DNA of 64,000 bases from Corallococcus exercitus (GCF_042231735.1 NZ_CP102577.1:2783281-2847280); one strand, 5' to 3'. Positions 3,575 to 57,247 are shown, numbered from the stretch's first letter. A program made the numbers and translations. The notes: generated by a model from the letters alone, not told the origin.

Positions 3575-3588
3575 GGAACCCCCACGCC

Positions 3589-11076: not shown

Positions 11077-11078
11077 CT

Positions 11079-14454: not shown

Positions 14455-14464
14455 GGCGGCCCGC

Positions 14465-15421: not shown

Positions 15422-15580
15422 GGAATGACGCTCCGCGGGGTGGGGGAACGACTTCGCATGAAAGCTTATATCAACCTGTACTTCCTGTGACACCAGCCCA
15501 CCCCGGAAGCGGCGAACCGTTTCAACAAGCCCCCGCGTGTCGACACTCACGCGAGGGCTTTTGTCACACCGTCGTCAAAC

Positions 15581-38300: not shown

Positions 38301-39691
38301 CGGCTGCGGCCGATGATGTCGCCCCGGCCCTTGACGAAGAGGCCGCGGCGCGTCTCCCCCAAGAGCCGGTACACCGGCACGGAGCGCGAGACGCCCTTCA
38401 GCTTCGCGTCCTCGACGAACTCGGTGGCGAAGCCACCCTGCCGCGAGCGCGTCTGGGTGTTGGCGCACAGGTGCACGCCGCCCTGGCGTCCGCCGTGCGT
38501 CATCAGGCGCGCGGCCATGTTCACGACCTCGCCCAGCGCCGAGTAGCCCTTGCGCGTGGGCGAGCCCATGTCGCCGCAGTAGGCGTGGCCGGTGGCGATG
38601 CCGATCTGCAGCTCGTCGAGGAACGGGAACTGCTCGCGCGCCTTGAGCAGCTTGCAGGCCAGCCGGCACGCCAGCACCTCCTTGTTCTGCTGGGCGGTGG
38701 GCGCGCCGAACAGGACGTAGAGGACGTTGCCCTTGTCCGTGAAGTCCGTCATCAGCAGCACGCCACCGTGGTGGGCGCTCTCGCGCTGGACGAACTCGTA
38801 GTAGGCGTTGAGGTCGCGGGTGAAGGCTTCTGGATCCGCGTCCGACGACGCGTGGGTGAAGCGCACGAAGAAGCAGGTGACGTCGCGGAAGTCGCCCGCG
38901 AACTCCTGGTGCGCGGTGGTGATCTTCGTGAAGAGCACCGGGTGCAGCAGCAGCGCGCACCGGCCCACCAGCTCCGCCCCGCCCGTGGGCGCGGGCAGCG
39001 GGCGCTTCACGGCCTCCACCGGCGCGTCGAGCGCCAGCCGGTGGTTGCCGCCGTCACGCGGCTCGCCCCGGCGCGCGGACTCCGGCAGCGCCGCCCAGGC
39101 CCGGGGGCTCAGGACGACCTCCGACACCGTGGCCTGCTTCTCCGCGCCCACCGCCTGCGCCAGCGGCTCGCCCACGAGCGCCGGGTGCATCCACAGGCCG
39201 GTGGCGCCCATCACGATGCGGGTCGCCTCCCCGAAGCCGATGCCGATGCGCGACGACACGCCGAAGCGCTGGCCCAACAGCTCCAGCCGGGCGAAGCGCG
39301 CGAGCCGGCGCTGCACGCCCAGCGCGCACACCGCCGCGCGCTGCACCACGTCGCCGTCCGCCTCGCCGGGCGCGGCCTCGAAGCACGCGAGGATGGAGTC
39401 ACCGGCGAACTGGTAGATGTCCCCGCCGTGGTCGCGGACCACGTCGATCATCTCCGTGTAGTAGTTCGTCAGCAGGCGCTGGAGCGCGTCGATGCCGCGC
39501 GGGCCCGCGCCGCTCAGCCCCACCACGATGGGCGTGAAGCCCGCGATGTCCAGGAGCAGGATGGCGCCCCGCACGCCTTCCGCCAGGGGCAGCGCGTCCG
39601 CCGCCTGGCTCCCGAGCCGCGCGAGGATGGCCGCCGGCACGTAGGGCGCCAGCGTCGCGACGACGGGGTCAATGGGCTGCGTGGAGGGCAT
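35390..39691 (-). CDS. multidomain signalling protein: two class-III adenylate/guanylate-cyclase-like domains, a STAND/AAA ATPase, and C-terminal TPR/helical repeats
   Basis: Cyclase-like segments (ILLLDIAGFT...YQFAGDSIL and a second FVRFTH...GDMGSP), a Walker A (VSGEAGIGKS), and a long helical-repeat C-terminus. About 1430 aa from MPSTQPID. Confidence 0.8.
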   Translation of the reverse strand: MPSTQPIDPVVATLAPYVPAAILARLGSQAADALPLAEGVRGAILLLDIAGFTPIVVGLSGAGPRGIDALQRLLTNYYTEMIDVVRDHGGDIYQFAGDSILACFEAAPGEADGDVVQRAAVCALGVQRRLARFARLELLGQRFGVSSRIGIGFGEATRIVMGATGLWMHPALVGEPLAQAVGAEKQATVSEVVLSPRAWAALPESARRGEPRDGGNHRLALDAPVEAVKRPLPAPTGGAELVGRCALLLHPVLFTKITTAHQEFAGDFRDVTCFFVRFTHASSDADPEAFTRDLNAYYEFVQRESAHHGGVLLMTDFTDKGNVLYVLFGAPTAQQNKEVLACRLACKLLKAREQFPFLDELQIGIATGHAYCGDMGSPTRKGYSALGEVVNMAARLMTHGGRQGGVHLCANTQTRSRQGGFATEFVEDAKLKGVSRSVPVYRLLGETRRGLFVKGRGDIIGRSRELNVLHESLTAAFAGQGRVCVVSGEAGIGKSRLGARVLEDAEEGGARALYGVCYSYEAFTPFFPWKEVLLQAFGLHDSDDTEAQLTRLRQGLEGLEDVGPEWIPVMAGILGMSLEETSATSGMDARRKQQKVFQIVFQLLESLSRAQPLLLFFEDLHWADYISLDLLQYLALRVGSHRIMVLATMRPGDQVKGLRELPEFLPVDLVSLDEEDTRALLRVHLRLSPPDVALEDRLLAKVQGNPFFIESIVEGLAEQGYLGLAEPGSTRMELKRGLQDLLLPDSIQDVVLSRIDLLSETEKLVVKVASVIGRIFTLDAVAALVPTLGAQRLREAMDTLQRLGLILLEQEEPYTCLFKHIVIRDVAYNTLLVSAREDLHRRLARYLEVRANDNLAASAGLLAFHFLAGNVEDKGLEYTLMAARSARAQYANDDALYHYNRGLELLGTVAPVDPEAMLLKTRRVMQELAETLLQAGHYANAILMFEQCLVDEEEPQRQAELHLGLGRAHQEKGESALATQHLEKSLVLRGRSLPRSLPALGLRTLANLLLRGLASLLPFILRPLPASRLGNYLQQLSTLNSLIRIYYFADIMKLTWATLVSTNMAERSRNDYAMSLARGYYGTLLFGAGLLKRARYHCEKALEYARRSKDPVAEGLALSRLGIQAFFANELQRAWEFQEEAVSTLRQVGERWERQTSLMMQATGEFLHSRFRTAEALYEQMKTIGVELNALMHQGWAHSWAPMCRYLLGEGDVGELCAELEQGLRISEEVADLANQCASLNHLANVTVREHQVEEAALVAVRCFKSIWSYQVLVPFLQVGLVDAAEAALFALEEGATVVPRKELLRIVRLSCIKARVIARLYPYLKGPALRVTARSLALRKGPKAAEPVFLEAIAVLEKSPNRWETGVAYFDAAVALPHRREAFLARAREIFTQVEARAELRRVDRFQAATQLPPAEALPLPQAAGARDARVM

Positions 39692-39708
39692 CCCCGGGGG
39701 CTTTCCGC

Positions 39709-40176
39709 TCAGGACAGGTTGGCGTAGCGCAGGTAGAGGGCGCCCAGGCACACGGCGCCGTAGAGGGGAATCTCCGCCGTCTCCGTCCAGGGCTGCTGCT
39801 TCATCACCGCGCCCCAGACGTGCACCGCCGTCATGATGCCGCCAATGAGGCCGATGAGCTCGAAGATGACCAGGTGGCTCTTGGGGTCCGGGATGAACTG
39901 CACCACCGCGATGATGACGGACAGCGCCAGGCCTCCCAGGCAGCGCGCGAAGTAGACCGTCAAGTCGTTGTTGCCCGTGGGCAGCTCCCACCCGAACCAG
40001 CGCGCCCAGCGCAGCGGCACGAACAGCAACGGCAGCGCGTAGACGACCGCGAAGACCGAGGTGGAGACCGCGAGGAACCAGCTGGCCAGCGGATAGTCGG
40101 GGTTGATCATGATGGCGGACGAGGCAAGGGCACCGGGCGTCCTGCTGCCGGGCGCACCCTGCCCCACGCTGTCCAT
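39709..40176 (-). CDS. small integral membrane protein (3-4 TM helices)
   Basis: Hydrophobic helices. The start may be MINPDY at about 40110. Confidence 0.45.
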   Translation of the reverse strand: MDSVGQGAPGSRTPGALASSAIMINPDYPLASWFLAVSTSVFAVVYALPLLFVPLRWARWFGWELPTGNNDLTVYFARCLGGLALSVIIAVVQFIPDPKSHLVIFELIGLIGGIMTAVHVWGAVMKQQPWTETAEIPLYGAVCLGALYLRYANLS

Positions 40177-40243
40177 CCTAGAATCTTTTCCCTCCCCGTG
40201 GGGCGCCTTCCCCCCACCCGGCCCCCGTCAGCCCGGCTGCCGG

Positions 40244-40774
40244 CTAGCGGGTGGCGGCCAGGAGGAACTCGGCCACCCGCTCCAGGGAGGTGGTGCGCTC
40301 GGCTTCCGCCGGGAAGCGCCGGAAGGCCTCCGGGGGCCCGTGCAGGATGAGCGGCTTGCCATAGCGCAGCGCCAGGACGGCCTCCGCCGCGGTGCCCGCC
40401 CCTCCGGGTAGCGCGACCAGGGCGTGCGGCGTCAGCACGTTGATGTGGTTGCGGCTCATCGGGTCCGTGCCCTGCTCCCCGCTGAGCGGCAGGTGCGTGT
40501 AGATGGGGATTTCGATATCCGTGTTCGGGTAGCCGGGCCGGGGCTGGTACCGGCCATCCGCCCCGACAGTGCCGGGGATGATGCCGATGGCCGCCCCCCG
40601 CCGCCCCTCCACCTGGACGAAGGCCCCCGCCGCGACGCTCATGACGCCCCCGCCCGCGCCCGTCAGCAGGTCGAAGCCCGCCTCGGCAATCCACCGCGCC
40701 AGGGGGACGACCCACTCCTCGTGGGCCTCCGTGCCGGAGCCGAACACTCCGATGATGCGGCGGTGTCTGCGCAT
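40244..40774 (-). CDS. LOG-family (TIGR00725-like) Rossmann-fold protein
   Basis: GxGxxG (IGVFGSGT) and the PGGxGTxxE motif (LPGGAGTAAEAV) typical of LOG/YvdD-like proteins. Confidence 0.7.
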   Translation of the reverse strand: MRRHRRIIGVFGSGTEAHEEWVVPLARWIAEAGFDLLTGAGGGVMSVAAGAFVQVEGRRGAAIGIIPGTVGADGRYQPRPGYPNTDIEIPIYTHLPLSGEQGTDPMSRNHINVLTPHALVALPGGAGTAAEAVLALRYGKPLILHGPPEAFRRFPAEAERTTSLERVAEFLLAATR

Positions 40775-41414: not shown

Positions 41415-44400
41415 TCAGGGCACGTCCAGCGCGACGCCCTGTCCCGGCACGGCCATCACCCAGCGGACGACGTCCGGCTTGCCGCCGCAGGTGACGCGCA
41501 CCTCGAACTCACGCCCCGCGGGCATGGGGCTGGCGAGCGGCGTCTGGCCCTGGAGCACCTGCGAGCCCAGCGCCACGCGGCAGCCCTGGGCACCGGTGAC
41601 GCTGAGCGTGCCCCGGGCATCCGCCTGGGGCGCGGCGTCCGCGAGCGTGCGCAGGTCGATGTGCTCCGACTTCGGCACCTTGCCGAAGCGGTGCAGCTTG
41701 CCCTCCACGGCCGTGGAGACGAGCCAGCCGGAGGGGTCCTCCGGCAGGGCGTTGCTGCCTTCCAGCAGCACGCCGGACACGTAGACGCGCTCGCCCTCCT
41801 GGGCGTTGCGCACCTCCACGCCGCCCTTGGGCAGCAGGAACACCAGCGCGAGCCCCGCGAGCACCAGGCCCACGCCCCCCACGACGAGCCCCTTGCGCTG
41901 GCCGGACGTCAGCCCCTTCCCCGTCGCGTCGGCGGCGGGCACCTGGGCCGCGGGGGCGGCCACGGCGTGGACGGGCGGAGGAGGCGCGGCCACGGGAGCC
42001 GCCGGAGGGCGCACGGGCGCGGCCACGGGCGGCGGCGGCGCGGCCACGGGCGGCGGCGGCGAGGGGTGGTTCCCTCCATAGGCCGCGTGCGTGCCCGTCT
42101 GCGGCGGGTGGGCACTTCCCTGCGGCGGGGCCGCGTATTGCGCGTGGGTGCCCCCGTGCTGCGGATGGGCGGCCACGGGGGGAGGCGCCACGGCGGCCAC
42201 GGGGGGAGGCGGCGGGGCCGAGGTCAGGGGCGCCACGGAGGGCACCGACACCGACGGACGCGCGGGCGCCTGCGGCGGAGGCCCCACGCGCGTGGGCACG
42301 TTGGCGGCGGCCGCCGGGCGCACCGCGGTGGGCGGCGGCAGCGGTGACGCGGGCGGCGGCGCGGCCGGGCGCGACGGACGGGGCGCGGGCGCGGCGGCCA
42401 CGGGCGGGGAGGCCACCGGGGGCGCGGCGACGGGAGGACGTGTCGGATCCGAGGTGACGGAGACGACCTCGGTGCCGCGCTCGGCGGCCTCCGGCGGGGA
42501 GGCCACCGGGGGCGGCTCCATCCGGGGCATGCTGCCGGAACCGCCGCGCACGGGCGGACGGGACAGGTCCGACGGGGCGCGCATGTCGCTGCCGGAGCCC
42601 GTGCCCGGGGCGCGCGAGTGCGAGCCCGTCCCCGGCATCAGCGCCCGGGGGTTGGAGCCCGTGCCCGAGCCGGCGATGGACGACGGCGCGTACTCGGAGA
42701 GCCGGTCGCCCAGCGCCTCCTTGAAGAACTGCGCCACCGACGCGGGCGACGAGGACAGCCGGTGGTGCGCGATGACGGCTTCAATCTCCTCGCGCATCGC
42801 CGCCGCGGAGGGCGTGCGGCGCGCCGGGTCCTTCACCAGCGCGCGCAGGATGAGGTCCGACACGTCCTGCGGGATGTGGGGCCGCAGCTGCGAGGGCACC
42901 GGCGCGGGCTCGCGCACGATGGCCGCGAGCGTGGCCGCGTCGTGGTCGCGGCGGAACGGCAGCTGGCCGGTGAGCAGCTCGAAGAGCACCACGCCCAGCG
43001 CGAACACGTCGTTGCGCCAGTCCAGCGGACGGCCGCTGGCGGCCTCCGGGGAGAGGTACGAAATCTTCCCCTTGATGACGCCCGCCTGCGTCTGCTCCTC
43101 GCCCTGCACCTTGGCGATGCCGAAGTCCGACAGCTTGATGGCGCCGTCCAGCGACACCAGCACGTTGTGGGGGCTGACGTCGCGGTGCACCACCGGGTGC
43201 GCGGTGCCGGACGGGTCCACGTAGCTGTGCGCGTAGTGCAGGCCCGCGGCGACCTCCGCCACGATGCGCAGCGCGTGCTCCAAGGGCAGCGCCATGCCCT
43301 TGCGGCGCAGCTCCGTGAGCAGGCGCTTCAGGTCCGGGCCGCGCACGTACTCCATCAGGATGTACGCCACGCCGTCCGTCACGCCCACGTCGAAGGTCTG
43401 GACGATGTTGGGGTGCGTGAGGCGCGCGTTGGCGCGGGCCTCCGCGAAGAGCATGTCGACGAACTCAGGATTCTCAGCGAACTGCGCGAGAATCTTCTTC
43501 ATCACGACGAACTTCTCGAAGCCCTTCACGCCCTGCTGCTTGGCGAGGAACACCTCCGCCATGCCGCCCTGCCCCAGCCGGCGGATGATCTGCAGCCGCG
43601 CGCTGCCGCCGTGCACGTCCGTGGGCGACGTGCCCCGGGCGCCGGGGTCCGCGTTGGTGGAGCCGAAGAGGTACTGGCTGAGCGCGCGCTGCTCCAGCGC
43701 CTCGATGTCGTCCAGCGGCTTGTCGGTGAGCGGCGTGCGCGCGAGCAGCCCCTGGAACTGCGCGAGCGCCGGAGCCCGGGCGCTGCCGCCGCAGACGGGG
43801 CACACGCGGTCCAGGGTGCCCTTGGCGCGCAGCACCTCCAGGTACTCGTTGGTCTGGATGCGCTGGTGGGTGACCTGGCCGCAGTTGCGGCAGTCGCACG
43901 GCAGCCACAGCGTGGCCAGCTTCGCCGGCAGCGCCTTGGTGGACTTCGCCAGCACGCCCAGCAGCGGCGGCGGCACGCGGCAGAGCACCACCTGGGCGCC
44001 CTGCGACGCCACCTCCAGCACCTGTTCGATGCGCGGCAGCGCCTCCGGCTCCACCGTGCTCACGTGGCAGCAGTCGAACGCGACGCGCCCCTCCAGGCCG
44101 GACGCCAGCCGGCGCACGTTGAGGTCGCCCTTGAGCGTGCTGGCCAGGGTGATGAAGGTGATGTCGTCCTGGACGATCTTCAGGTGCGAGGACAGCTCGG
44201 ACGGCTCGTTCGGGAGGCCCGCGCGCAGGTAGCGCAGCACGGCGGGGTCCACCGCGGAGAACTGCTGGCGGCGCGCGAAGTCGAAGAACTCCGTGGGCTC
44301 GTCCGCGAACTCCAGCGGCTGGGCGCACACGGGGCAGTGGTGCGGCGGGGCACCGCCCGCCTCCACGACCTTGCTCTCCTCCACCAGGCGGACCAGCCGC

Positions 44401-44753
44401 AGCCGGTCCTCCTTGCAGAAGCGGCACGAGTACGGCGCCAGCAGCGAGAGCACGCGCGCGACGCCCGCGAAGCCCTCCACCATGTTGAGCTGATCCACCA
44501 CCACCGGCGGTGCGTTGACGACGTACAGCCCCGACACGCCCTGCGGCGGGTGGCCGGCGAACTCAATCCACCGGCGGACCCCGAAGGAGCTGATGCGCTC
44601 CACCAGCCCCAGGTCCACCACCACCAGGCCCTGGAGGCCCTTGGACGCTGGCGAGAGGGGGAAGGTTTCGTCGATCACCCCGGCCACGCGCACGTGGGTC
44701 AGACTGCCCACGCGCAGGGAGGTGATGCTGGCATTGGAAGTTTGGCTCTCCAC
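41415..44753 (-). CDS. membrane Ser/Thr protein kinase with an N-terminal STAS (anti-sigma-factor antagonist-like) domain, two zinc-ribbon repeats, a Pro-rich linker, a TM helix and a C-terminal periplasmic domain
   Basis: The STAS pattern is VVVDLGLVERISSFGVRRW...LYVVNAPPVVVDQL. There are two Cx2C...Cx2C modules. Kinase motifs are a Gly loop (LGQGGMAEVF), the invariant Lys (VVMKKIL), a catalytic loop (HRDVSPHN), DFG and SPE. A TM helix (LVVGGVGLVLAGLALVFLL) separates the C-terminal domain. Confidence 0.8.
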   Translation of the reverse strand: MESQTSNASITSLRVGSLTHVRVAGVIDETFPLSPASKGLQGLVVVDLGLVERISSFGVRRWIEFAGHPPQGVSGLYVVNAPPVVVDQLNMVEGFAGVARVLSLLAPYSCRFCKEDRLRLVRLVEESKVVEAGGAPPHHCPVCAQPLEFADEPTEFFDFARRQQFSAVDPAVLRYLRAGLPNEPSELSSHLKIVQDDITFITLASTLKGDLNVRRLASGLEGRVAFDCCHVSTVEPEALPRIEQVLEVASQGAQVVLCRVPPPLLGVLAKSTKALPAKLATLWLPCDCRNCGQVTHQRIQTNEYLEVLRAKGTLDRVCPVCGGSARAPALAQFQGLLARTPLTDKPLDDIEALEQRALSQYLFGSTNADPGARGTSPTDVHGGSARLQIIRRLGQGGMAEVFLAKQQGVKGFEKFVVMKKILAQFAENPEFVDMLFAEARANARLTHPNIVQTFDVGVTDGVAYILMEYVRGPDLKRLLTELRRKGMALPLEHALRIVAEVAAGLHYAHSYVDPSGTAHPVVHRDVSPHNVLVSLDGAIKLSDFGIAKVQGEEQTQAGVIKGKISYLSPEAASGRPLDWRNDVFALGVVLFELLTGQLPFRRDHDAATLAAIVREPAPVPSQLRPHIPQDVSDLILRALVKDPARRTPSAAAMREEIEAVIAHHRLSSSPASVAQFFKEALGDRLSEYAPSSIAGSGTGSNPRALMPGTGSHSRAPGTGSGSDMRAPSDLSRPPVRGGSGSMPRMEPPPVASPPEAAERGTEVVSVTSDPTRPPVAAPPVASPPVAAAPAPRPSRPAAPPPASPLPPPTAVRPAAAANVPTRVGPPPQAPARPSVSVPSVAPLTSAPPPPPVAAVAPPPVAAHPQHGGTHAQYAAPPQGSAHPPQTGTHAAYGGNHPSPPPPVAAPPPPVAAPVRPPAAPVAAPPPPVHAVAAPAAQVPAADATGKGLTSGQRKGLVVGGVGLVLAGLALVFLLPKGGVEVRNAQEGERVYVSGVLLEGSNALPEDPSGWLVSTAVEGKLHRFGKVPKSEHIDLRTLADAAPQADARGTLSVTGAQGCRVALGSQVLQGQTPLASPMPAGREFEVRVTCGGKPDVVRWVMAVPGQGVALDVP
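41950..42215 (-). repeat. in-frame tandem nucleotide repeats encoding a Pro/Ala/Val-rich linker of the kinase
   Basis: A perfect 21-bp tandem repeat (gcggccacgggcggcggcggc, twice, at 42019-42060) and near-repeats (ggccacggggggaggcg, twice, around 42171-42211). Confidence 0.7.
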
Positions 44754-44757
44754 CCGC

Positions 44758-45603
44758 CTACCCTCGTTCCAGACAGAACAGCAGCGACTTGGGCTGCGCG
44801 GCCCGGCGGCGCGCGTCCCCCAGGTCCACCGCGCAGGCGAACTGGGTCCGCTTCCCCGGAGTCACCCGCACCGCGACCGCGTCGCTGTGCTCCAGGATGC
44901 GCCGCAGACCCAGGCCCGCGCCACCACCCGAAGCATCCACCTGCGCCTTCTCACCCCACGCCTTCACCACCCGCACCAGCGGTGACACCGACAGGCGGCC
45001 GAAGCGATCCGTCGCCTCCAGCCAGGCCCGGCCGTCCGCCACCGCCCAGGACAGCAGGCAGCGATCCTCCTCCGCCACCGACTGCACCTGTCCGCGCCGG
45101 TGGGCGTACTTCGGCTCGCCGCCCGCGTCCACCGGCGCGTCGAGCAGTGCGTTCACACCAATCTCATGGACGACATCCGCCACCCGGCTGGCCGCCGCCT
45201 TGGAGCCGCCGGCCTGGAGGACGCCTTCCGCCGCGCGCTCCCCCGCCGCCGTCACCTCCGCGACACTGCCCAGCCACGCCACCGACGTGGCGGCTTCCCG
45301 GGGAATCATGGGCTCGCCGCGCAGGAGCGCGCCGAGCAGCCGCGCCTCCCAGGCGGACGGCTGGCCGCCCTCACCGCGCGTGGCCAGGAGCAGCGCCGGG
45401 GGCTGCCGCTCCAGGAGCGCCGCGTGGGCGGGGGTGAACCGCCCGTCGAACAGCACCAGGTGCGGCGCCGCGTCGTCACCGCGCCCCAAAAGGACGCCGT
45501 CCCGGGCCAGCACCCCGGAGGCCTTCTCCAGCGCCTCCGGCGTGAGCGTCGTGTCCGGCGTCAACTTCAGGGGGGCATCCTTCACGGCGGCGACGGTATC
45601 CAC
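44758..45603 (-). CDS. two-domain protein with a C-terminal GHKL ATPase resembling RsbW/SpoIIAB (anti-sigma factor / protein serine kinase)
   Basis: N-box-like (VHEIGVNALLDA), D/G1-like (VADGRAWL), G2 (SGGGAGLGLRRIL) and a following beta strand (AVAVRVTPGKRTQFACAV), in the same order as RsbW. 4 nt from the kinase gene. Confidence 0.5.
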   Translation of the reverse strand: MDTVAAVKDAPLKLTPDTTLTPEALEKASGVLARDGVLLGRGDDAAPHLVLFDGRFTPAHAALLERQPPALLLATRGEGGQPSAWEARLLGALLRGEPMIPREAATSVAWLGSVAEVTAAGERAAEGVLQAGGSKAAASRVADVVHEIGVNALLDAPVDAGGEPKYAHRRGQVQSVAEEDRCLLSWAVADGRAWLEATDRFGRLSVSPLVRVVKAWGEKAQVDASGGGAGLGLRRILEHSDAVAVRVTPGKRTQFACAVDLGDARRRAAQPKSLLFCLERG

Positions 45604-45609
45604 AGCGCT

Positions 45610-48213
45610 CTAATAATGCAGTCGAACTTCGGTGAAGACGCCCAGCGGGGGGGCGGGGAAGCCGTGGGACTCCTCGTACTTCGCGTTGAAGAGGTTGGTG
45701 CCCAGCAGGGACACGGCCACGCGCTCGTGGACGTTGAAGCCCACGCGCGCGGTCGCGGTGATGTAGCTGGGCAGCTTCACGCGGGTGGTGGTGCCGGCGA
45801 TCTCATCCACCACGAAGCCCGGGTCGAAGCGCGGGCCCACGAACAGGCCGTACAGCTCCACGAAGGCGAACTTGCCGATGTTGGTGCGGCCGCGCAGGTA
45901 GACGCGGTGGGTGGGCGCGTAGTCCAGCGGGTAGCTGGCCCCGCCGCCCACGGGCAGCGCCTCGGCGTCCAGGAACTGGTAGGCCACGTCGAAGGACGAG
46001 TTGAGGGCCGGCACCTGCGCCGCGGCCTCCGCCTCGAAGCCCGCCACGCGCGCGTCGCCCAGGTTCTTGAACTGGGACGTGGAGCCGAAGAGGAGCTCCT
46101 GGTTGATGAAGTTGCGGGCGCGGTTGTAGAAGCCGGTGCCCGTCAGGCGCACCTTGCGGTCGAACGGCCAGAAGTCCACCGCCGCCTCCACCGTGTCCAG
46201 CGTCTCCGCGCGCAGGGCCGGGTTGCCCAGGAGCGTCGCCGCGTACATCTGCTGGTTGATGGCCAGCTCCGCCAGCGTGGGCGCGCGGAAGGCGCGGCCG
46301 TAGTTGGTGCGCAGCGTGAGCAGCTCCGGGATGGCGTGGAACACGACGCTGGCGCGCGGGGACACCTGGTCCGTCTTCGCCTCCCAGACCTTGGAGGGGA
46401 TCTGGTAGTTGTCGTAGCGGGCGCCCGCGCCCACCACCAGCCGCTCCGTGACGCGGTACTCGGCGTCCACGAAGCCGCCCAGGATGGTCTGCTTCGTGTC
46501 GTCCAGGGTCAGGCCGGGCAGCACGTTCTGGTTGTTCACCTGGTCGGCCTTCACGTCGCCGCCCACGGTGACGGACAGCTTGTCCAGGGAGAACAGCGCG
46601 CGCGCCTCACCGCCCAGGCGGCTGCGCTTGCCCAGCGTGTCCTCGAGCGCGCCGGTGATTTCGTTCTCCAGCGTCACGTTGCGGCGCTTGAAGAACGTGT
46701 AGGCCTGGGCGAACACGCGCACGTTGTCCGTCACCTGCTGATCCAGCTGCAGGGCGGCGTTCAGGTTCTGGACGTGCTCGTTGTCCTGCGCGGTGTAGTG
46801 GCAGCGGCCGCAGTTGCCCACGGTGGAGATGTTCTGGCCACCGGGCCGGCCGATGTTGCCGTCGGTGAAGTCCGCGTCCAGGGCGAGGGGCCCCACGCGG
46901 ACCTTGCCGTTCACCTGGTGCACCAGCGAGTCCTCGTTGGTGTCCGTCTGGCCCAGCTGCTGGTTGTTGAAGAGCTGCGGGCCGTCCGAGCCGAAGCCGT
47001 AGTAGCCGAGCAGCGCCTCCACCGGACCGCCGCGGCCGGCGACGTTGGTCTGCAGGCGCCACGTCTTGTCCTGGCCCGCGAGGATGCGCGCGTCGGCGCC
47101 CACGTTCTGGCCCTTGGCGATGAGGTCCGCGGGCTGGCGCTCGATGATGTTGATGACGCCGCTGAAGGCGTTGGAGCCGTAGAGCGACGAACCCGGGCCG
47201 CGGATGACCTCCACCTGCTTGAGGTTGGTCATCGGCGTCGTCTCATCCGCGTAGAACTGGCCCGTCCAGGGGTCCGTCAGCGGACGGCCGTCCTTGAGGA
47301 GCAGCAGGCGGTTGGACAGGTAGTTGGAGCCCAGGCCGCGCGCGCTCACCGCCGCCTTGCGCATGGAGCCCCGGCGGCACTCCATGCCGGGGAAGTACTG
47401 GATGGCCTCGCAGAGCGAGAACTGGCCGGTGCCCTCCAGCTCCTCCGCCGGAATCCAGGACACCGTGAGGGGCACGTCGGAGATGCGCTGGCTGCGCTTG
47501 GACGCCGTGGTGACGACGGCCTCGCTCAGCGCCAGGTTGATGTTCTTCTCCAGGTCGTCGCCGCCGCCCAGGTCCGGGCCGTCCAGGCCGGAGAGGCTGG
47601 AGGGCGGAGGCAGCGCGCGGTCCGTGGTGGGCTCCGTGAAGGGCGCGCGGTCCGGGACGTTGTCGGCCGTCCGGGGCTGCGACGACGGCAGCACCGCGCC
47701 CGTGCCCAGCGCCGGCGCGGGCGGCGGGTTGGACGGGATGTCGGTCATCAGCGGCCCGTCATAGGGCGACGTCGAGGCAGGCGTCCCGGGCGAGGCCACG
47801 GGCAGCGGATCCGCCACGGACGGGCCGACGCCAGGGCCGGCCACCGGGGCGGGCGGCGCGGGCGGCGGCTCGGTGGCGAGCACCGGCTCCTGCGGGGCGG
47901 GCGCGTCCGCGGGAATGGGCTCCGGCTCCACCGGCGGAGGCGGCGTCTTCGCGCCCCGGCGCGTCTTCGCCGTGCGCGGAGGCTTCGCCCCCGGAGTGGC
48001 GGCCTTGGCGCCCGGCGGGGTGGCCGCGCGCTTGCGGGAGGCCTTCGTCCGCGTCTTGGGAGCAGGCTCCTGGGCCTCCTGGGCCTGGGCCGTCTCCACC
48101 GCGAACAGCGACAGCGCGCAGACCACCAGCGTGAGGCATGCGCGCGCGCCCAGCCGGCCGGCAAACCCCTTCACCGCGCTGGTGCGCGGCCCACCGTACT
48201 CAGTCGAGTCCAT
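45610..48213 (-). CDS. TonB-dependent outer-membrane receptor with a long disordered N-terminal extension
   Basis: Signal peptide, then ~200 aa of Lys/Pro/Ala-rich low complexity. Plug domain (TonB-box-like ALSEAVVTTAS, RGPGSSLYGSNAFSGVINI) and a long beta-barrel. The start may be 48297. Confidence 0.8.
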   Translation of the reverse strand: MDSTEYGGPRTSAVKGFAGRLGARACLTLVVCALSLFAVETAQAQEAQEPAPKTRTKASRKRAATPPGAKAATPGAKPPRTAKTRRGAKTPPPPVEPEPIPADAPAPQEPVLATEPPPAPPAPVAGPGVGPSVADPLPVASPGTPASTSPYDGPLMTDIPSNPPPAPALGTGAVLPSSQPRTADNVPDRAPFTEPTTDRALPPPSSLSGLDGPDLGGGDDLEKNINLALSEAVVTTASKRSQRISDVPLTVSWIPAEELEGTGQFSLCEAIQYFPGMECRRGSMRKAAVSARGLGSNYLSNRLLLLKDGRPLTDPWTGQFYADETTPMTNLKQVEVIRGPGSSLYGSNAFSGVINIIERQPADLIAKGQNVGADARILAGQDKTWRLQTNVAGRGGPVEALLGYYGFGSDGPQLFNNQQLGQTDTNEDSLVHQVNGKVRVGPLALDADFTDGNIGRPGGQNISTVGNCGRCHYTAQDNEHVQNLNAALQLDQQVTDNVRVFAQAYTFFKRRNVTLENEITGALEDTLGKRSRLGGEARALFSLDKLSVTVGGDVKADQVNNQNVLPGLTLDDTKQTILGGFVDAEYRVTERLVVGAGARYDNYQIPSKVWEAKTDQVSPRASVVFHAIPELLTLRTNYGRAFRAPTLAELAINQQMYAATLLGNPALRAETLDTVEAAVDFWPFDRKVRLTGTGFYNRARNFINQELLFGSTSQFKNLGDARVAGFEAEAAAQVPALNSSFDVAYQFLDAEALPVGGGASYPLDYAPTHRVYLRGRTNIGKFAFVELYGLFVGPRFDPGFVVDEIAGTTTRVKLPSYITATARVGFNVHERVAVSLLGTNLFNAKYEESHGFPAPPLGVFTEVRLHY

Positions 48214-48447
48214 CGTTCTCAATTCCACGAGGGGAAGCAGGGATGTCCGCGGTCCGTGCGCCAGGATCCAGAGCCGGTGCGACTGGCAATCGTCCACAGG
48301 GGCGAGTTTCCGCCCCTGAACGGTGGCGTTCCGCTCGACTTCTCAAACTACCGCAATAACTCACCTAAGGCCAAGTCGTGGCTGTCGATCCAGGCAAATC
48401 ACGCGAACGGCGGCGGGAGCGCCGCGCGCGGATCAGCCACGGCGCAA

Positions 48448-49374
48448 TCAGTCATCCGGCTGTTCAGCGGACACGGCCAGGTCGTCCGCGAACGGCGGCA
48501 GCGCGGGACCCAGTGACTCGGACTGCACGAGCACGGGCGTCTCCACCCGCAGGTCGGGGGCGTCCGCGAGGACGGGCTGGCGGCGTGGGGGGCCCTGGGT
48601 GACGAGCTTGCGGAAGTCCTCGAACTCGCGGCCCTGGATGCGGGCGAAGGCGTCGAACGGGGCGACCACACCCACGGAGGACAGGGACTGGGACAACGCG
48701 TCCCCCCCGCCCTTCAGGTCCACCAGCACGGCGCCCGGCACCCGGACGCTCTTGAAGAGCACCCGCATGTCCCTGGGCACGTGCGCCACCGGCACGAGCG
48801 CGGCCTCCGCGCCCTTCGCCTCCAGCATCTTCACCGCCGACTCCACGTTGGGCACCGGCACCAGCTTGAAGTGCTTCTGGGCATCCAGGTCGCCGCCCAG
48901 CACGACGTGGGAGACGAACTTCGGATCCGCGGGGCCCGCGCCCTTCACCAGCGCCATGCGCTTGCCGGCGAGGTCCTTCACGGTGCCCTTCTGGGTGGAG
49001 ATGATGGCCCAGCGCTGCTGCGTCTCACCGGCGCGCGGCGCGTACGCCACGGGCTGCGCCTTGGCGCCCAGCTGCACCGCGGCCCAGCCGTCCACCACGG
49101 CGAAGTCGATCTGCCCCTCCCCCACCGCCTTGGAGAAGTCCTCGTAGCGGCCGAAGCTCTTGGCGCCCACGGGGCGGCCCAGGCTGGCCTCCAGCTTCTG
49201 GGCCAGGGCCTCCGCGTACTGGAAGCGCTCCTGGCCGTCCGACAGCGTGGTGGCGAGGAACACGCCCAGCGTGGCCTTCTTCGGCGCGGCGGACGCGGGA
49301 CGGGAGATGACAACGGAGAACAGCACGGCGGCGAGCAGGAGGCTCCCCCGCGCGACAAGGGATGGCGTCTTCAC
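48448..49374 (-). CDS. periplasmic PhnD/SsuA-like substrate-binding protein
   Basis: Signal peptide and type-2 periplasmic-binding fold features. It overlaps the TPR gene stop by 4 nt. Confidence 0.65.
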   Translation of the reverse strand: MKTPSLVARGSLLLAAVLFSVVISRPASAAPKKATLGVFLATTLSDGQERFQYAEALAQKLEASLGRPVGAKSFGRYEDFSKAVGEGQIDFAVVDGWAAVQLGAKAQPVAYAPRAGETQQRWAIISTQKGTVKDLAGKRMALVKGAGPADPKFVSHVVLGGDLDAQKHFKLVPVPNVESAVKMLEAKGAEAALVPVAHVPRDMRVLFKSVRVPGAVLVDLKGGGDALSQSLSSVGVVAPFDAFARIQGREFEDFRKLVTQGPPRRQPVLADAPDLRVETPVLVQSESLGPALPPFADDLAVSAEQPDD

Positions 49375-51896
49375 GGCGTCTCCTCCGCGACCCCGGTGGC
49401 CGGCGTGACGCCCTGTGCGTCACCCAGTCCATGGAGGCCCTGCAGGCGGTCCTTCCATTCACGCACCTGGGCGGCGCGGGTGCCCGCGCCGGAGGCCAGG
49501 TAGCGGCGCCAGGCCTCCACGGCCTCGGCGGGTTCATGCCGGCGCTCCTGCGCGTCGATGCCCAGGTTGAGCGAGGCGACGGGCACGGCGGTCTCCAGGC
49601 GCTTCCACGTCGCGAGCGCGGAGGCCGCTTCGCCCTGGCGCCAGTCCACGCACGCCAGGTTGTGCTGCACCAGCGCGTCGTCGGGCGTCGCGGCGAGCGC
49701 GGCCTTCAGCGCCTTCTCCGATGCCCTCATGTTGCCGGAGGCGTACGCGAGCGCCGCCTCGCGGCGCAGCAGCGCGCCGGTGAGGTGGCCCATCCACTTC
49801 GGCTGTCCGGGCATGGGCTTCTTCTGCGCGGCGGTGAGCAGCTTGCGCGCGGGCGCGACCTTGCCCTGGCGGTAGAGCACCCACGCGTCCGCGAGCGCGC
49901 GCGTGTTGGGCCACGCCCACTCCGGCGCCGGGGTGAGCGAGCGCTTGAGGCCGGCGGAGGCCTCCGCGAACCGCCCTTCTTCCGCGCGCGTGAGTGCCCG
50001 GGCGAAGGTGGCCAGCTTCGCCAGGTCCGTGCGCTTGCCGGTGCCCAGGCGGTCCACCGCGTCCAGGTCCCGGTTCGCCGCGGCCGCGTCGCCGGCCTCC
50101 AGCTTCGCCAGGGCCCGGCGCACCAGCACGCGGGGCAGGTTCGCCTCCGCCACCTTCGAGGCCGTCTTGGAGGGCCCCGCGTCCGTCAGCCGCTGCACGG
50201 CGGCGTCCACCTGGCCCAGCTCCACCTCCGCGAGCGCGGCGCCCGCGGACGCCTCCGCGCGCTGATCCGGCTCCTGCGTGGCCTCGCCGGACTGGGTGAA
50301 GGCGGCGAGCGCTCCTTGCGCGTCGCCACTGCCCAGCCGCGCGTAGCCCAGGAGCAGGTGCTCGCGCCAGGTCGCGCCCGGCAGCGTCACCGCGCCCTCC
50401 AGCACCTTGCGGGCCTCCGCGTACTGGTGGCTGTCCAGCAGCGCCGCGCCCAGGCGGCGGGCCATGGGGACGGAGCGGTCCAGGTCGTAGGCGCGGCGCA
50501 GGTCGCGCACGGCGTCGTCCAGGCGCTGCGTGCCGGCGCGGTCGCGTGCGCGGTGCGCCAGCGCCCGGGCCAGCCACTGCTTCGCGCCGGGGTGGCCGGG
50601 TTCGACCTGGAGCGCGCTGCCGTAGTCCTCGATGGCCTGGTCCCACTGGCCGGTGGCGAAGTGATCCGCGCCCAGCAGCATCCAGCCCAGCGCCTGGCGC
50701 GGGGCCATCTCCACCACGCGCCGGTGCACCTCCACCGCTCGCTGGTAGCGGCCGGCGCGGCGGTTGACGGAGCCCAGCGTCGCCCACAGCTCCAGGCTGC
50801 CGCCGCCCGTCTTCACCGCGGACTCCAGGAACTGGATGGCCTCCTCGTGGCGCGCCTGCGCCTGGAGCGCCTTGCCCACGGCGATCTGCCCCAGGAGCAG
50901 GCCCGGCTGCAGCTCCAGCACCTTGCGGAACTCCGCCTCCGCCTGCGCGGGCTGCTTCTGCGCGAGCCGCACGTCACCCAGCAAGAGGTGCGCGGCGGGC
51001 GTCGAGCCCAGCTTCATGAGCGCGGTGGCCTGGAGGTCCGCGCGCGGCACGTCGCCCGCGGCGAGGTACTGGCGCGCGAGGCGCTCCTTGGGCTCCGCCG
51101 CCTGCGGGTACTTCGTCACCAGCCGCTCCAGCAGCGCGCGGGCCTCCGGCACGCGGCCCTCCAGCTCCAGCACGGCGGAGAGGCCGATCTGCGCGGTCGC
51201 GGACTCGGCGCGGCCGGCCTGCGCCTTCTCGAAGGAGGCGCGCGCGGCGACGGCGTCGCGGCGGATGAGGTGCGCCTTGCCCAGCAGCTCGTGGATCTGG
51301 AAGTCGTTGCCCGCGAGCTTCTCCGGGCGCAGCACCAGGTAGCGCTGCAGCCGCGTCACGGCGCGGTTCCCGTCCTGGACGTAGAGGTAGTAGCTGGCCA
51401 GGTAGTAGTGGACGATGAGGTGGTCGGGCTGATCCGCGGCGGCCACCTGCTCCAGCACCGGCACGGCCTCCGGGAAGCGGCGCAGCTTGAAGTACGCCGT
51501 GCCCAGCGGGTACGCGAGCGACAGCTCCGACGGGTTCTGCGCGAACACCGGCTGGAGGCGGGCCACCGTGCGCTGGAAGTCCTGGAGCGCGTTGGCGGCG
51601 CTGCCCAGGCCCGCGGCGGCGTACACGGACTGCGGCTCCTGCGCGAGCGACTGCTCGAAGAGCTGGAGCGCCTTCTTGAACTTCTCCTCTGCCTCCTGCT
51701 TGTCGCCCTTGGAGAGGGCGGCGTTGGCGGACACAAGGGCCTGTTCGCCCTGCACCGTCATGCGCTGCGCCTCGGTGGCGGGCGGCGGGCGGAACTGGGC
51801 GAGCGCCGTCGGCGGGCCGGCCAGGGTGGCCAGCAGGACGAGCGCGGTGGAGACGCGGCGCGGGGAGCGGATGAATGGGCGCATGCGGTTCGTCAC
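49371..51896 (-). CDS. periplasmic TPR-repeat protein (841 aa)
   Basis: Signal peptide, then ~20 TPR-like helical repeats. It overlaps the upstream phosphatase gene by 4 nt. Confidence 0.75.
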   Translation of the reverse strand: MTNRMRPFIRSPRRVSTALVLLATLAGPPTALAQFRPPPATEAQRMTVQGEQALVSANAALSKGDKQEAEEKFKKALQLFEQSLAQEPQSVYAAAGLGSAANALQDFQRTVARLQPVFAQNPSELSLAYPLGTAYFKLRRFPEAVPVLEQVAAADQPDHLIVHYYLASYYLYVQDGNRAVTRLQRYLVLRPEKLAGNDFQIHELLGKAHLIRRDAVAARASFEKAQAGRAESATAQIGLSAVLELEGRVPEARALLERLVTKYPQAAEPKERLARQYLAAGDVPRADLQATALMKLGSTPAAHLLLGDVRLAQKQPAQAEAEFRKVLELQPGLLLGQIAVGKALQAQARHEEAIQFLESAVKTGGGSLELWATLGSVNRRAGRYQRAVEVHRRVVEMAPRQALGWMLLGADHFATGQWDQAIEDYGSALQVEPGHPGAKQWLARALAHRARDRAGTQRLDDAVRDLRRAYDLDRSVPMARRLGAALLDSHQYAEARKVLEGAVTLPGATWREHLLLGYARLGSGDAQGALAAFTQSGEATQEPDQRAEASAGAALAEVELGQVDAAVQRLTDAGPSKTASKVAEANLPRVLVRRALAKLEAGDAAAANRDLDAVDRLGTGKRTDLAKLATFARALTRAEEGRFAEASAGLKRSLTPAPEWAWPNTRALADAWVLYRQGKVAPARKLLTAAQKKPMPGQPKWMGHLTGALLRREAALAYASGNMRASEKALKAALAATPDDALVQHNLACVDWRQGEAASALATWKRLETAVPVASLNLGIDAQERRHEPAEAVEAWRRYLASGAGTRAAQVREWKDRLQGLHGLGDAQGVTPATGVAEETP

Positions 51897-53710
51897 GGCG
51901 TGGGGGCGGGGCTGAATTCGGCGACGATGACGGTGATGTCGTCGCGCTGGGGCTGGCCGGCGCTGTACGCGCGCACGTCCGCGAGGAGCGCGTCGCGAAG
52001 GGCGTCGGCGGGAAGGTGCGCGTGGGTCTGGAGCGCGGCGGCCAGGCGCTGCGTGCCGTAGAGGCGGTTGGCGCCGTCGCGCGCCTCGGTGAGGCCGTCC
52101 GTGTACCAGACGATGATGTCACCGGGGCTCAGCTGCGCCTGGCGCGACGTGAACTGCGAGGCGACGTTCGCGCCCAGCAGCGGGCCGCGCGCCGGCAGCG
52201 ACGCCATCTGCCGCGTGTTCCGGTTGTAGATGGCCGCCGCCGGGTGGGCGCCCGCCGCGTAGTCGATGCTGCCGCTGTACACGTCGATGACCGCGAGCGC
52301 GCTGGACATCTGGTGCTCGCCGCGGCCCACGTTGGCCAGCGTCACGTTGAGCGCGGTGATGAGCATCTGCGCGTGCACCTGCGACGGCTCGCGCAGCGTC
52401 ATCGCGGAGGCGAAGCCGCTGGTGGCGCTGGTGGCGACCAGCGACGTGGACAGGCCGTGGCCCGTCACGTCTCCAATGCCAATGACGACGCGCCGGTCGT
52501 CCAGCGCGGCGCGGAACCACCAGTCGCCGCCGCACGCGTCCGCGGGCACCACCAGCCCGGCGAGCCGCAGCGGGCCCACCGTCACGGCCTCTCGGCCCGG
52601 CAGGAGCGTCTCCTGCACGGTGCGCGCGAGCGACACCTCGCGCTCCAGCTGCGCCTTGGCGCGCACGTCCTCCAGGAGGACCTTGATGCGCTCCGCCATG
52701 TGGTTGAACACCACGCCCAGCGTCGTCACTTCACGGCCCGCGCCCGGCGCCGTGCCCGCGCGGGCGCCCAGGTCACCGGCGGCCAGCTGCATCACGCGGT
52801 GGGTGAGCACGCCCAGCGGCTTGGTGATGCGGCGGCTCTGGAAGGCGGCCAGCACGCCGGCCAGCACCACGAAGCCCACGCCCAGGCCCACGATGCGCAG
52901 CGTGTTGGCGCGCACCGCGGCGCGGTTGGTCTCCTCCAGTTCGTGCAGCTGCTTCTGCAGGTCCTCCAGCGAGTAGCTGATGACGACCACGCCCTTGCCG
53001 CCCTGCGAGCCGTAGTCGAGCGGCTCCTGGAACTCGAAGACGGGCTGGCCGTTGAAGAAGGCGCTGGCCCAGCGGCGCTCCGCGGTGCGGCCCCCGGAGG
53101 ACTCCCCCAGCTTGGCGGCCGGGTCGCTGTCCGCGACGAGCTGCCCGTCCGCGTCGAACATCTGCACGCGCAGGATGTTGCGGTTGTCCGCGATGATGGA
53201 GCGCGCGACCTCCGTGAGGAACGCGTAGTTGTTGTCGCGCAGGCTGGTGGCGGAGGTGAGCGCCAGCGTGTGGCTCACCGTCTGGCCCAGCTCGCGCGCC
53301 TGGGACTGCAGCCGCTGCGTGAACCGGTCCGACGTCGCGGTGAGCTGCGCCTCCGTCGTCTTCGCCGACAGCGCGGCCAGGAGGCCCACGATGATGATGA
53401 CCAGCGCGCCCGTGGTGAGCAGCAGCAGCTGATCCAACCGCAGCCCACGGATGGCCGCCACGTTGGGCAGCTCTCCGGCCTCCATGGGCGCGATGACCGT
53501 GCTCGTGGGCTCCGCGGCCGGCAGCCCCAGCGCCCCGGTCAGCCGGGTGGCCGTGTTCTCCCCGCGCAGGGCGGTGAGGTCCCGGGAGTGGGTGCCCGTG
53601 TACTCCGGCGGAGGGGGCGGGGTGCCAGGCCCTGCGTCGTGGGAATCTCCGGACGCATCGGGGGAATCTGGCACGGGGTCGAGGCGCGTGTTCGTACGGG
53701 ACAAAGGCAA
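51893..53710 (-). CDS. membrane sensor PP2C/SpoIIE-family protein Ser/Thr phosphatase (RsbU-like) with a periplasmic domain and HAMP
   Basis: Two TM helices flank a ~200-aa periplasmic domain, followed by a HAMP-like linker. The PP2C motifs are present (GGDWW, GDVTGHG, VWYTDGLTEA, DDITV). Confidence 0.8.
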   Translation of the reverse strand: MPLSRTNTRLDPVPDSPDASGDSHDAGPGTPPPPPEYTGTHSRDLTALRGENTATRLTGALGLPAAEPTSTVIAPMEAGELPNVAAIRGLRLDQLLLLTTGALVIIIVGLLAALSAKTTEAQLTATSDRFTQRLQSQARELGQTVSHTLALTSATSLRDNNYAFLTEVARSIIADNRNILRVQMFDADGQLVADSDPAAKLGESSGGRTAERRWASAFFNGQPVFEFQEPLDYGSQGGKGVVVISYSLEDLQKQLHELEETNRAAVRANTLRIVGLGVGFVVLAGVLAAFQSRRITKPLGVLTHRVMQLAAGDLGARAGTAPGAGREVTTLGVVFNHMAERIKVLLEDVRAKAQLEREVSLARTVQETLLPGREAVTVGPLRLAGLVVPADACGGDWWFRAALDDRRVVIGIGDVTGHGLSTSLVATSATSGFASAMTLREPSQVHAQMLITALNVTLANVGRGEHQMSSALAVIDVYSGSIDYAAGAHPAAAIYNRNTRQMASLPARGPLLGANVASQFTSRQAQLSPGDIIVWYTDGLTEARDGANRLYGTQRLAAALQTHAHLPADALRDALLADVRAYSAGQPQRDDITVIVAEFSPAPTP

Positions 53711-56717: not shown

Positions 56718-56771
56718 GGGCCGGGCGCTCGGCCCGGGCCCCTTCGCGACAGGAGAGCGCTTTTCAGCGCT
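56718..56771. terminator. two GC-rich hairpins between the convergent GNAT (+) and PilZ (-) genes
   Basis: gggccg-ggcgct-cggccc (56718-56735) and agcgc-tttt-cagcgct (56756-56771). The second overlaps the PilZ stop. Confidence 0.4.
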
Positions 56772-57120
56772 TGAAGCTCGCGATGACGCGGCGCAGGCGC
56801 TCGTGGTCCTCTTCGCTCACGTCGATGAAGCGCACGCCGATGGCCTCCGCCTCGTCGCGCACCCAGGCGACGATGCCGGTGAGGTGGAACTCCTCGCCGT
56901 CCACCACCATGGCCAGCCGCACCTGCGCGCCCACGTCGTAGGACTTGCGCGTGCGCAGGCACAATCCACCGGCGGACAGGTTCAGCGAGTAGGCCCGCAG
57001 CGCACGCGCCGCGTCCTCCATCTGCTCGAAGCGCACCTCGAACCGCGCCGCCACGCGCTCCTCGGCGCGACGGTTCATGTACGGGTCTGGTTCCACCGGC
57101 CCATCCAACTTCGTGTTCAT
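56764..57120 (-). CDS. PilZ-domain protein (c-di-GMP-binding), stand-alone
   Basis: RRxxxR (RRAEER) and DxSxGG (NLSAGGL) PilZ motifs. Confidence 0.75.
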   Translation of the reverse strand: MNTKLDGPVEPDPYMNRRAEERVAARFEVRFEQMEDAARALRAYSLNLSAGGLCLRTRKSYDVGAQVRLAMVVDGEEFHLTGIVAWVRDEAEAIGVRFIDVSEEDHERLRRVIASFKR

Positions 57121-57247
57121 GCGCACCCTGACCCCCTCGGTTCTCGGACCGGAAGTGTCGGCTGGTTTCCAGGCCCGGTTCAAGGGCCCCCGGACGACGG
57201 AACGCCTCGTGTAAGTCCCAGGCTACTTCGACGCCAGGAGTTTCCGG

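Follow-up and report, generated by a model that had tools for sequence, protein, structure and literature searches.

Introduction

Partner switching is known mainly as a form of sigma-factor control, and worked cases with an enzyme as output, such as SiaABCD, are few. Myxobacteria possess about a hundred Hanks-type Ser/Thr kinases, the inputs of which are mostly unknown. Here we analyze a stretch of 64,000 nucleotides from Corallococcus exercitus (GCF_042231735.1, NZ_CP102577.1:2783281-2847280; hereafter the window, to whose first letter all positions refer), in which six minus-strand genes at 41415–53710 encode a membrane PP2C phosphatase of the SpoIIE type, a tetratricopeptide repeat (TPR) protein, a PhnD-like substrate-binding protein, a TonB-dependent receptor (TBDR), a 281-amino-acid (aa) protein with a predicted GHKL fold and a 1,112-aa Hanks-type kinase with N-terminal STAS modules. 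We propose, with moderate confidence, that the cluster encodes a phospho-switch of the partner-switching type with a receptor Ser/Thr kinase, and not a sigma factor, as its output. The direct base of this proposal is the folds, motifs, linkage and fusions of the proteins, from which we infer how the switch would work.

Several described systems resemble parts of this cluster. In FecA-FecR-FecI, a TonB-dependent receptor is genetically coupled to cytoplasmic signalling and carries an N-terminal extension ahead of its TonB box, two features that are also found here. The RsbU protein of Chlamydia spans the membrane and has its sensor domain in the periplasm. For SiaABCD, we take the roles of membrane HAMP-PP2C and RsbW-like kinase partly from the PDB and NCBIfam names of SiaB and SiaA. 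Work on Pseudomonas aeruginosa describes SiaABCD as a Thr-phosphorylation pathway that controls biofilm, in which binding of SiaC activates the cyclase SiaD (PMC7647112, PMC8457831). For Chlamydia, a published report describes a sensor phosphatase, RsbU, that feeds an RsbV/RsbW partner switch (PMC11619594). In Myxococcus xanthus, whose orthologues of the present cluster are MXAN_4557 to MXAN_4562, a phosphatome survey of 2010 identified MXAN_4562 as the only SpoIIE-like phosphatase; the same survey recorded fusions of STAS with eukaryotic-like kinases in Sorangium, and did not connect these genes to each other (PMC2887360). In open-access papers we found no mention of MXAN_4557 or MXAN_4558, and nothing else relevant on partner switching combined with Myxococcus, TonB receptors or Hanks kinases. 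A first-pass annotation, made by a model from the sequence alone, had known of no description of the combination; this holds in so far as no open-access paper linking these genes was found, but MXAN_4562 and the Sorangium fusions had already been noted.

Results

Two STAS modules are fused to a receptor Ser/Thr kinase

The N-terminal part of the kinase contains an internal repeat (BLASTP E = 6e-6) composed of residues ~8–165 (44259–44732, on the minus strand as are all window features below) and residues 190–330 (43764–44186), each of which ends in a CxxC…CxxC pattern. In an AlphaFold model of residues 1–370 (predicted local distance difference test (pLDDT) score 86.1), the top fold matches are RsbR, the YchM STAS domain, RsbS, RsbV and SpoIIAA, and the second module shows the same secondary-structure pattern as the first. 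Among 13 orthologous kinase N-termini, Pfam detects STAS_2 in 11 (best E = 1.6e-8) and STAS in 8, and the window kinase itself matches STAS_2 at E = 3.5e-4 (21 bits versus a cut-off of 29.2 bits). A profile of this region retrieved zinc-finger noise only from PDB sequences. Word-indexed homologue searches with the kinase N-terminus recovered 8–9 proteins, and the orthologues were therefore drawn from related loci. The first-pass annotation had described the kinase N-terminus as a STAS domain; the model and the orthologue matches confirm the predicted STAS fold, but place it in two STAS plus zinc-ribbon modules (STAS1 and STAS2), not in one.

The alignment of 53 orthologous kinases defines the residues on which a switch would depend. 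The STAS1 motif R53-I-S55-S56-F-G-V-R60 is essentially invariant; position 55 is Ser in 52 and Thr in one of the kinases, and Ser56 is found in 53/53. In the model, Ser55 lies directly before the helix formed by residues 56–67, at its N-cap, and we take this site to correspond to Ser58 of SpoIIAA, the residue phosphorylated within its DSSG motif, an equivalence of motif position and not of residue-level superposition. Ser55/Ser56 (codons 44586–44591) is accordingly the predicted phospho-acceptor. By comparison, position 235 of STAS2, which is aligned with Ser55, is always acidic (Glu in 50 and Asp in three). The eight zinc-ribbon cysteines are invariant, the STAS2 set C288/C291/C318/C321 being present in all 53 sequences.

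The STAS modules are followed by a Hanks-type Ser/Thr kinase domain (residues 388–653, 42795–43592; Pfam Pkinase E = 4.1e-42), which is predicted to be active, as K419, H523-R-D525, N530 and D543-F-G545 are kept in 52–53 of the 53 kinases. The remainder of the gene (41415–42794, stop codon included) encodes a long Pro/Ala-rich linker (residues ~654–952), one transmembrane segment (residues 953–981, from hydropathy) and a 130-aa periplasmic tail (residues 982–1112). The tail (41418–41810) has no Pfam match and retains 33–40% identity even in the most distant loci; our impression of its sequence is that it is loosely like a PEGA-type beta-sandwich. A GC peak of 0.80 with positive GC skew at 42000–42999 arises because this interval encodes the Pro/Ala-rich linker (residues ~690–950), and is not a separate feature.

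The 281-aa protein belongs to a GHKL family missed by domain libraries

The 281-aa protein (orthologue MXAN_4558) is encoded directly upstream of the kinase and has 153 detectable homologues, nearly all of which, MXAN_4558 included, are annotated as hypothetical; its counterpart in one related locus (L001) is 98% identical. Neither Pfam nor NCBIfam matches the protein, HATPase_c_2 was not found in any of 30 homologues, and the family profile has no match among PDB sequences, so that the GHKL assignment came through fold comparison alone. An AlphaFold model built from the alignment of the 30 homologues (pLDDT 88.7, predicted template modelling score (pTM) 0.88) matches SpoIIAB, RsbW and SiaB over residues ~112–281 (44758–45270). 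In the same alignment, the invariant blocks E147…N151-A152, D199-x-F-G202 and G226-G-G-A-G-L-G232 match the N, G1 and G2 boxes of GHKL proteins in spacing and character. The GHKL fold proposed at first pass is thereby confirmed at the level of the model, despite the silence of Pfam and NCBIfam: the protein has a SpoIIAB/RsbW-type fold with intact ATP-binding boxes, and kinase activity is predicted.

Residues 12–111 (45271–45570) form an extra alpha/beta domain with weak likeness to receiver and BRCT folds, possibly a degenerate receiver. The corresponding domain of three paralogues (P0159, P0225 and L057:3-1604) also looks like a degenerate receiver ('HLLLLDTD … PVVMLS … VAK'). A receiver-like domain joined to GHKL resembles the combinations of receiver and RsbW-like domains in SypE and HsbR. 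An exhaustive profile search retrieved 1,852 cluster representatives at E ≤ 0.001, of which only 39 reached E ≤ 1e-30, which indicates that the close GHKL family is small and lies inside a larger, mostly unannotated group. A few members of the wider group reach Pfam HATPase_c_2 (for instance P0224, 27.5 bits). Another member, P0218, is fused to PilZ; a stand-alone PilZ gene is present in the window at 56764–57222, and no link between the two was established.

A membrane sensor phosphatase is encoded in the upstream operon

The 605-aa phosphatase (51893–53710; orthologue MXAN_4562) consists of a Pro-rich N-terminus, a first transmembrane segment (residues 89–121), a periplasmic domain of ~145 aa (residues ~122–267), a second transmembrane segment (268–292), a HAMP domain (292–342) and a SpoIIE/PP2C domain (404–599). 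Pfam matches SpoIIE at E = 1.1e-38 over 191 of 192 profile positions and HAMP at 4.1e-9, which places the enzyme in the SpoIIE/RsbU family of PP2C phosphatases on sequence criteria. The translation shows the metal-binding motifs GGDW, GDVTGHG, TDG and RDDIT, a set expected of an active SpoIIE/RsbU-type enzyme, and activity is predicted. The periplasmic domain is Cache-like, with weak Pfam matches to dCache_1 and sCache_4. In NCBIfam, the best match is SiaA (NF038263; E = 7e-25, 87.6 bits versus a cut-off of 700 bits), which spans the HAMP and PP2C domains.

Synteny and fusion proteins link the phosphatase, the GHKL protein and the STAS kinase

The synteny scan used one genome per species and covered 60 loci, all from Myxococcaceae, Archangiaceae or related metagenome-assembled genomes; the denominators are the loci with enough flanking sequence. 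The kinase gene is immediately downstream of the GHKL gene in 53/53 loci, and the TBDR gene precedes the GHKL gene in 46/51, the distant loci L050 and L052 included. A SpoIIE-type phosphatase is encoded upstream in 37/37 loci, with an orthologous PP2C within 10 kb in 35/37, and all six genes are syntenic in 34/37. The two-operon arrangement extends across Corallococcus, Myxococcus, Pyxidicoccus, Citreicoccus, Archangium, Vitiosangium and Hyalangium. Judged from these gene orders, the six-gene adjacency is not a product of chance, and the conservation in related genomes raised at first pass is borne out.

The departures from the common order are informative as well. In L056, the HAMP-PP2C gene abuts the GHKL and kinase genes, and the three envelope genes are absent between them. 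In L057, the operon of phosphatase, TPR and PhnD-like genes lies in inverted orientation but remains adjacent. A 1,390-aa HAMP-HisKA-HATPase-REC-SpoIIE protein with four receiver-domain matches takes the place of the PP2C in L049 and L053, and a binding protein of the SBP_bac_8 family comes next; in L047 and L049, a binding protein of a different family accompanies the module. L050 and L052 keep the TBDR, GHKL and kinase genes without a nearby PP2C gene. A gene for a calcineurin-like metallophosphoesterase lies just upstream of the TBDR or GHKL gene in L050 (2933-3772) and L054 (4823-5638), both distant loci without a nearby PP2C gene; this enzyme may be a substitute phosphatase in the two loci.

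Gene fusions bring the same three activities together. In two proteins (P0159 and P0225), a STAS-zinc-ribbon module that has the T/S-S motif is fused to a complete GHKL protein of this family, and L057:3-1604 encodes the same fusion in reverse order (GHKL followed by STAS and zinc ribbon). In P0253, a dCache-HAMP-GAF-SpoIIE protein is fused to a domain of this GHKL family. A further apparent GHKL-STAS fusion, P0127, was discarded, as its sequence looks frameshifted. Taken together, the fusions and the synteny exceptions argue that the phosphatase, the GHKL kinase and the STAS-zinc-ribbon module act on one another, and the functional tie between PP2C, GHKL protein and STAS kinase now appears stronger than the first-pass annotation could know.

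Two side observations concern neighbouring genes in these loci. At a distance of 7 kb upstream of its module, and adjoining a GT87 glycosyltransferase gene, L049 encodes a paralogous STAS-STAS-Hanks kinase (1385-3601) with 36% identity and without the membrane part, which means that the STAS-zinc-ribbon-kinase design occurs in more than one copy in some genomes. In L052, the kinase is followed by two genes with lantibiotic-dehydratase N-terminal domains (10836-15763). An antiSMASH label, 'lantipeptide', has been placed on MXAN_4545-4561 of M. xanthus (PMC4902038); we judge this label to be unrelated to the core cluster and probably also to the switch.

Envelope proteins and the boundary between the two operons

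Operon 1 encodes, besides the phosphatase, two secreted proteins. The 841-aa TPR protein (49371–51896) matches twenty TPR-type Pfam families and has a signal peptide ending in …PPTALA/QF, without a lipobox cysteine. The 308-aa PhnD-like protein (48448–49374) has a signal peptide and a Pfam Phosphonate-bd match (E = 2.7e-11), with weak, sub-cut-off matches in NCBIfam; it fits only the general Phosphonate-bd fold family and not the PhnD equivalog. No permease or ATPase of an ATP-binding cassette (ABC) transporter that could be its partner is encoded among the flanking open reading frames (ORFs) scanned, and we refer to the protein as an orphan. Phosphonate uptake through an ABC transporter was rejected as its role (TIGR03431, 22 bits versus a cut-off of 261 bits; no transporter genes nearby).

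The 867-aa TBDR (45610–48213; orthologue MXAN_4559) is identified as such by Pfam (Plug 1.8e-18, TonB_dep_Rec_b-barrel 9e-41). It consists of a signal peptide, a disordered Pro/Ala/Lys-rich extension of ~190 aa, a TonB-box-like EAVVTTA, the Plug and a barrel of the 22-strand type. The receptor shows sub-threshold resemblance to heme and siderophore receptor families, and no substrate-specific NCBIfam model reaches its cut-off; an Rfam scan of the cluster, made in search of a riboswitch that would name the ligand, gave chance-level matches only. In M. xanthus, MXAN_4559 has been detected in outer-membrane-vesicle (OMV) fractions and is also among the computationally predicted outer-membrane beta-barrel proteins. 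The signal peptides of the TBDR, PhnD-like and TPR proteins, predicted from hydropathy, and the predicted transmembrane segments agree with the topology assigned at first pass.

The six minus-strand ORFs lie where the first-pass annotation placed them, and all have the strong third-position GC bias typical of true genes (the window has ~71% GC). The close spacing that it reported also stands. In operon 1, the phosphatase stop overlaps the TPR start by 4 nt (GTGA), and the TPR stop overlaps the PhnD-like start by 4 nt (GTGA, with GGAGGAG just before); in operon 2, 6 nt separate the TBDR stop from the GHKL start and 4 nt separate the GHKL stop from the kinase start. The TBDR start needed correction. 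The ATG at 48213 lies within a conserved 'RTM(D/H)ST' kept in 22 loci, with an in-frame stop upstream in two loci, and replaces the GTG at 48297, which gives a receptor of 867 aa and a gap to the PhnD-like gene of 234 nt, not 150 nt.

This gap contains the element ACTTGGCC-N17/18-GGTAGnTT, the core of which is invariant in 12 loci of several genera while the flanks drift. In the window, the element can be read as TTGGCC, 18 nt, TAGTTT (48345–48374), and is likely, from its conservation, to be the promoter of the TBDR-GHKL-kinase transcript. On this reading of the element, the division into two adjacent operons was right. A strict scan for the sigma-70 consensus found no promoter and did not pick up the conserved element, and terminators were seen at background level only; given that no terminator was seen in the scan, some read-through from operon 1 could occur. 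A sigma-54 reading was rejected, for it fits the Myxococcus sequences roughly and is unconserved in Corallococcus. A second conserved block, GGAnnTGAGAACG, stands directly before the TBDR ATG.

Flanking genes lie outside the conserved core

Among the flanking ORFs supported by third-position GC (~19 kb downstream and 6 kb upstream), there is no gene for a sigma factor, FecR, an ABC transporter or ExbBD. Downstream of the kinase, the same strand carries a SLOG/LDcluster4 gene (40244–40774) and a 155-aa ORF without a match (39709–40176), and further downstream, also on the minus strand, a gene for a 1,533-aa protein with adenylate/guanylate cyclase, AAA_16 and TPR domains (35390–39991). This SLOG/cyclase trio (35390–40774) follows the kinase only in loci of the Corallococcus or Hyalangium type, which places it outside the conserved core.

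Discussion

In the mechanism that we propose, the GHKL protein would bind STAS1 of the kinase and phosphorylate Ser55 (or Ser56), and the membrane PP2C would strip the phosphate from STAS1 once its periplasmic domain is stimulated. The phospho-state of STAS1 would then set the activity or the oligomeric state of the fused Hanks domain. STAS1 would thereby resemble SiaC, whose unphosphorylated form activates the cyclase SiaD. It may compete with STAS2, which would be permanently 'phospho-mimetic' through its acidic residue.

Several points weigh against this reading. The window's GHKL and STAS sequences fall below the thresholds of hidden Markov models (HMMs), and their assignments rest on predicted structures. 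The second, sequestered partner of a classical switch was not found: no sigma gene is present in the cluster or within ~19 kb downstream and 6 kb upstream, as the first-pass annotation had also noted, and none is conserved in the related loci. That annotation's phrase, a complete partner-switching toolkit, was accordingly overstated, although PP2C, GHKL and STAS components are all there. By the COG count, M. xanthus has two other STAS proteins (COG1366) and two other RsbW-like proteins (COG2172), which its sole SpoIIE phosphatase might serve. The TBDR gene is absent in five loci and no PP2C gene is nearby in L050, L052 and L054, which indicates that neither input part is obligatory. Residues 1–270 of the TBDR have no Pfam match even at E ≤ 10, and contain neither STN nor another signalling domain. 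Finally, the promoter-like element between the operons suggests that each has a promoter of its own.

A first alternative keeps the components and reverses the flow. The Hanks kinase would sense through its own tail and phosphorylate its own STAS1, thereby freeing the GHKL protein, the true output in this case, to bind and inhibit a target encoded elsewhere, for instance a sigma factor, with the PP2C resetting the system. Phosphorylation of a STAS anti-anti-sigma homologue by a Hanks kinase has a precedent in PknD and Rv0516c (PMC1847690), the kinase does own a conserved periplasmic domain, and the extra alpha/beta domain of the GHKL protein could contact another partner. The ATP-binding motifs of the GHKL protein are nevertheless invariant, the STAS1 serine stands at the very motif position that SpoIIAB- and RsbW-type kinases use, and none of the neighbouring genes is a conserved candidate target; we consider this direction of flow unlikely.

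If the GHKL protein is instead the kinase of STAS1, as we favour, the question turns to the input, for which our proposal is more speculative. An envelope ligand would be taken up by the TBDR and captured by the orphan PhnD-like protein, the TPR protein might act as a scaffold, and the ligand would be presented to the periplasmic domain of the phosphatase, so that the signal would start at the outer membrane, cross the periplasm and end in Ser/Thr phosphorylation in the cytoplasm. The conserved order and close coupling of the envelope genes suggest that they supply the input, as do the absence of an ABC partner and the alternative binding protein that occurs where the PhnD-like gene is missing. 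We advance the complete chain, from the ligand of the TBDR over the orphan binding protein and the TPR protein to the Cache-HAMP-PP2C and the RsbW-like kinase, and from these to the STAS modules of the receptor Hanks kinase with STAS2 as a built-in competitor, only tentatively, as a possibility that we would not yet expect to hold in full.

It could also be that the switch is real and that the TBDR, TPR and PhnD-like proteins form an ordinary uptake system, merely co-located or co-regulated with it. The lack of an STN or other signalling domain in the TBDR and its sub-threshold likeness to heme and siderophore receptors would suit such a system, as would the five related loci in which GHKL and kinase genes occur without a TBDR gene and the PP2C-GHKL-kinase arrangement of L056, from which all three envelope genes are missing. 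Set against this, the binding protein has no ABC permease or ATPase, the TBDR gene is coupled to the GHKL and kinase genes by gaps of 6 nt and 4 nt in an order kept in 46/51 loci, and loci without the PhnD-like gene have binding proteins of another family alongside the module. We give this explanation about the same low likelihood as a reversed flow. Least probable of all, and in our view a slim chance, is that the two operons are independent and adjacent by descent, with the PP2C acting on other STAS proteins or on Hanks activation loops and the GHKL protein serving as an ATP-binding regulator that does not phosphorylate STAS: the additional STAS and RsbW-like proteins of M. xanthus, the separate promoter-like elements and the origin of all loci from one bacterial lineage, where shared ancestry inflates synteny counts, would allow it, but in L049 and L053 the same place is taken by a SpoIIE-type phosphatase with a very different architecture, the inverted PP2C operon of L057 has stayed adjacent, and SpoIIE-GHKL and STAS-GHKL fusions exist.

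The cluster offers a testable input mechanism for one Hanks kinase in the genetically tractable M. xanthus (MXAN_4557-4562) and a likely job for the only SpoIIE-type phosphatase of that species. It also reveals a GHKL family missed by HMM libraries, with 1,852 cluster representatives that are mostly annotated as hypothetical, and points to an unexplored route in which a TonB-dependent receptor would feed Ser/Thr phosphorylation. If the switch operates as proposed, a bacterial partner switch would directly gate eukaryotic-like Ser/Thr signalling, and if the envelope route is correct, it would widen the repertoire of both partner switches and cell-surface signalling.

Comparison with known systems

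Cell-surface signalling of the FecA type was rejected for this cluster, since the TBDR lacks an STN domain and the flanking ORFs scanned include neither a FecR nor an extracytoplasmic function (ECF) sigma gene. The extension of the receptor is low-complexity and Pro/Ala/Lys-rich, unlike the STN domain of FecA-type receptors. The related cases in Mycobacterium tuberculosis are PknD with its substrate Rv0516c (PMC1847690) and the multidomain Rv1364c. In that species, STAS is a separate substrate of the Hanks kinase, with sigma F as output. By comparison, STAS here lies within the kinase, and the neighbouring gene encodes a dedicated GHKL kinase. The Rsb system of Chlamydia has free-standing STAS proteins and, unlike the present cluster, is not known to include a Hanks fusion or an outer-membrane transporter.

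With RsbU/RsbV/RsbW and SpoIIE/SpoIIAA/SpoIIAB of Bacillus, the cluster shares the STAS fold, a Ser/Thr at the helix N-terminus, the GHKL boxes and a PP2C of the SpoIIE family. It differs from both in having no sigma factor, and in a STAS domain that is duplicated, bears a Cys4 zinc ribbon in each copy and forms part of a Hanks kinase. Its GHKL protein has an additional N-terminal domain and has diverged too far to be matched by HATPase_c_2, and its phosphatase is a transmembrane sensor. SiaABCD, with its HAMP-PP2C and RsbW-like kinase, its phospho-target and an enzyme as output, is the closest worked example. Neither a DUF1987/SiaC target nor a GGDEF output enzyme is found in the present cluster, and the phosphatase falls short of the SiaA equivalog cut-off. 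What is new here, relative to all of these systems, is a module of the partner-switch type whose proposed output, a Hanks kinase, is fused in cis and whose proposed input set lies in the envelope. Its parts and their linkage are real, and it would work, as we infer, as a phospho-switch.

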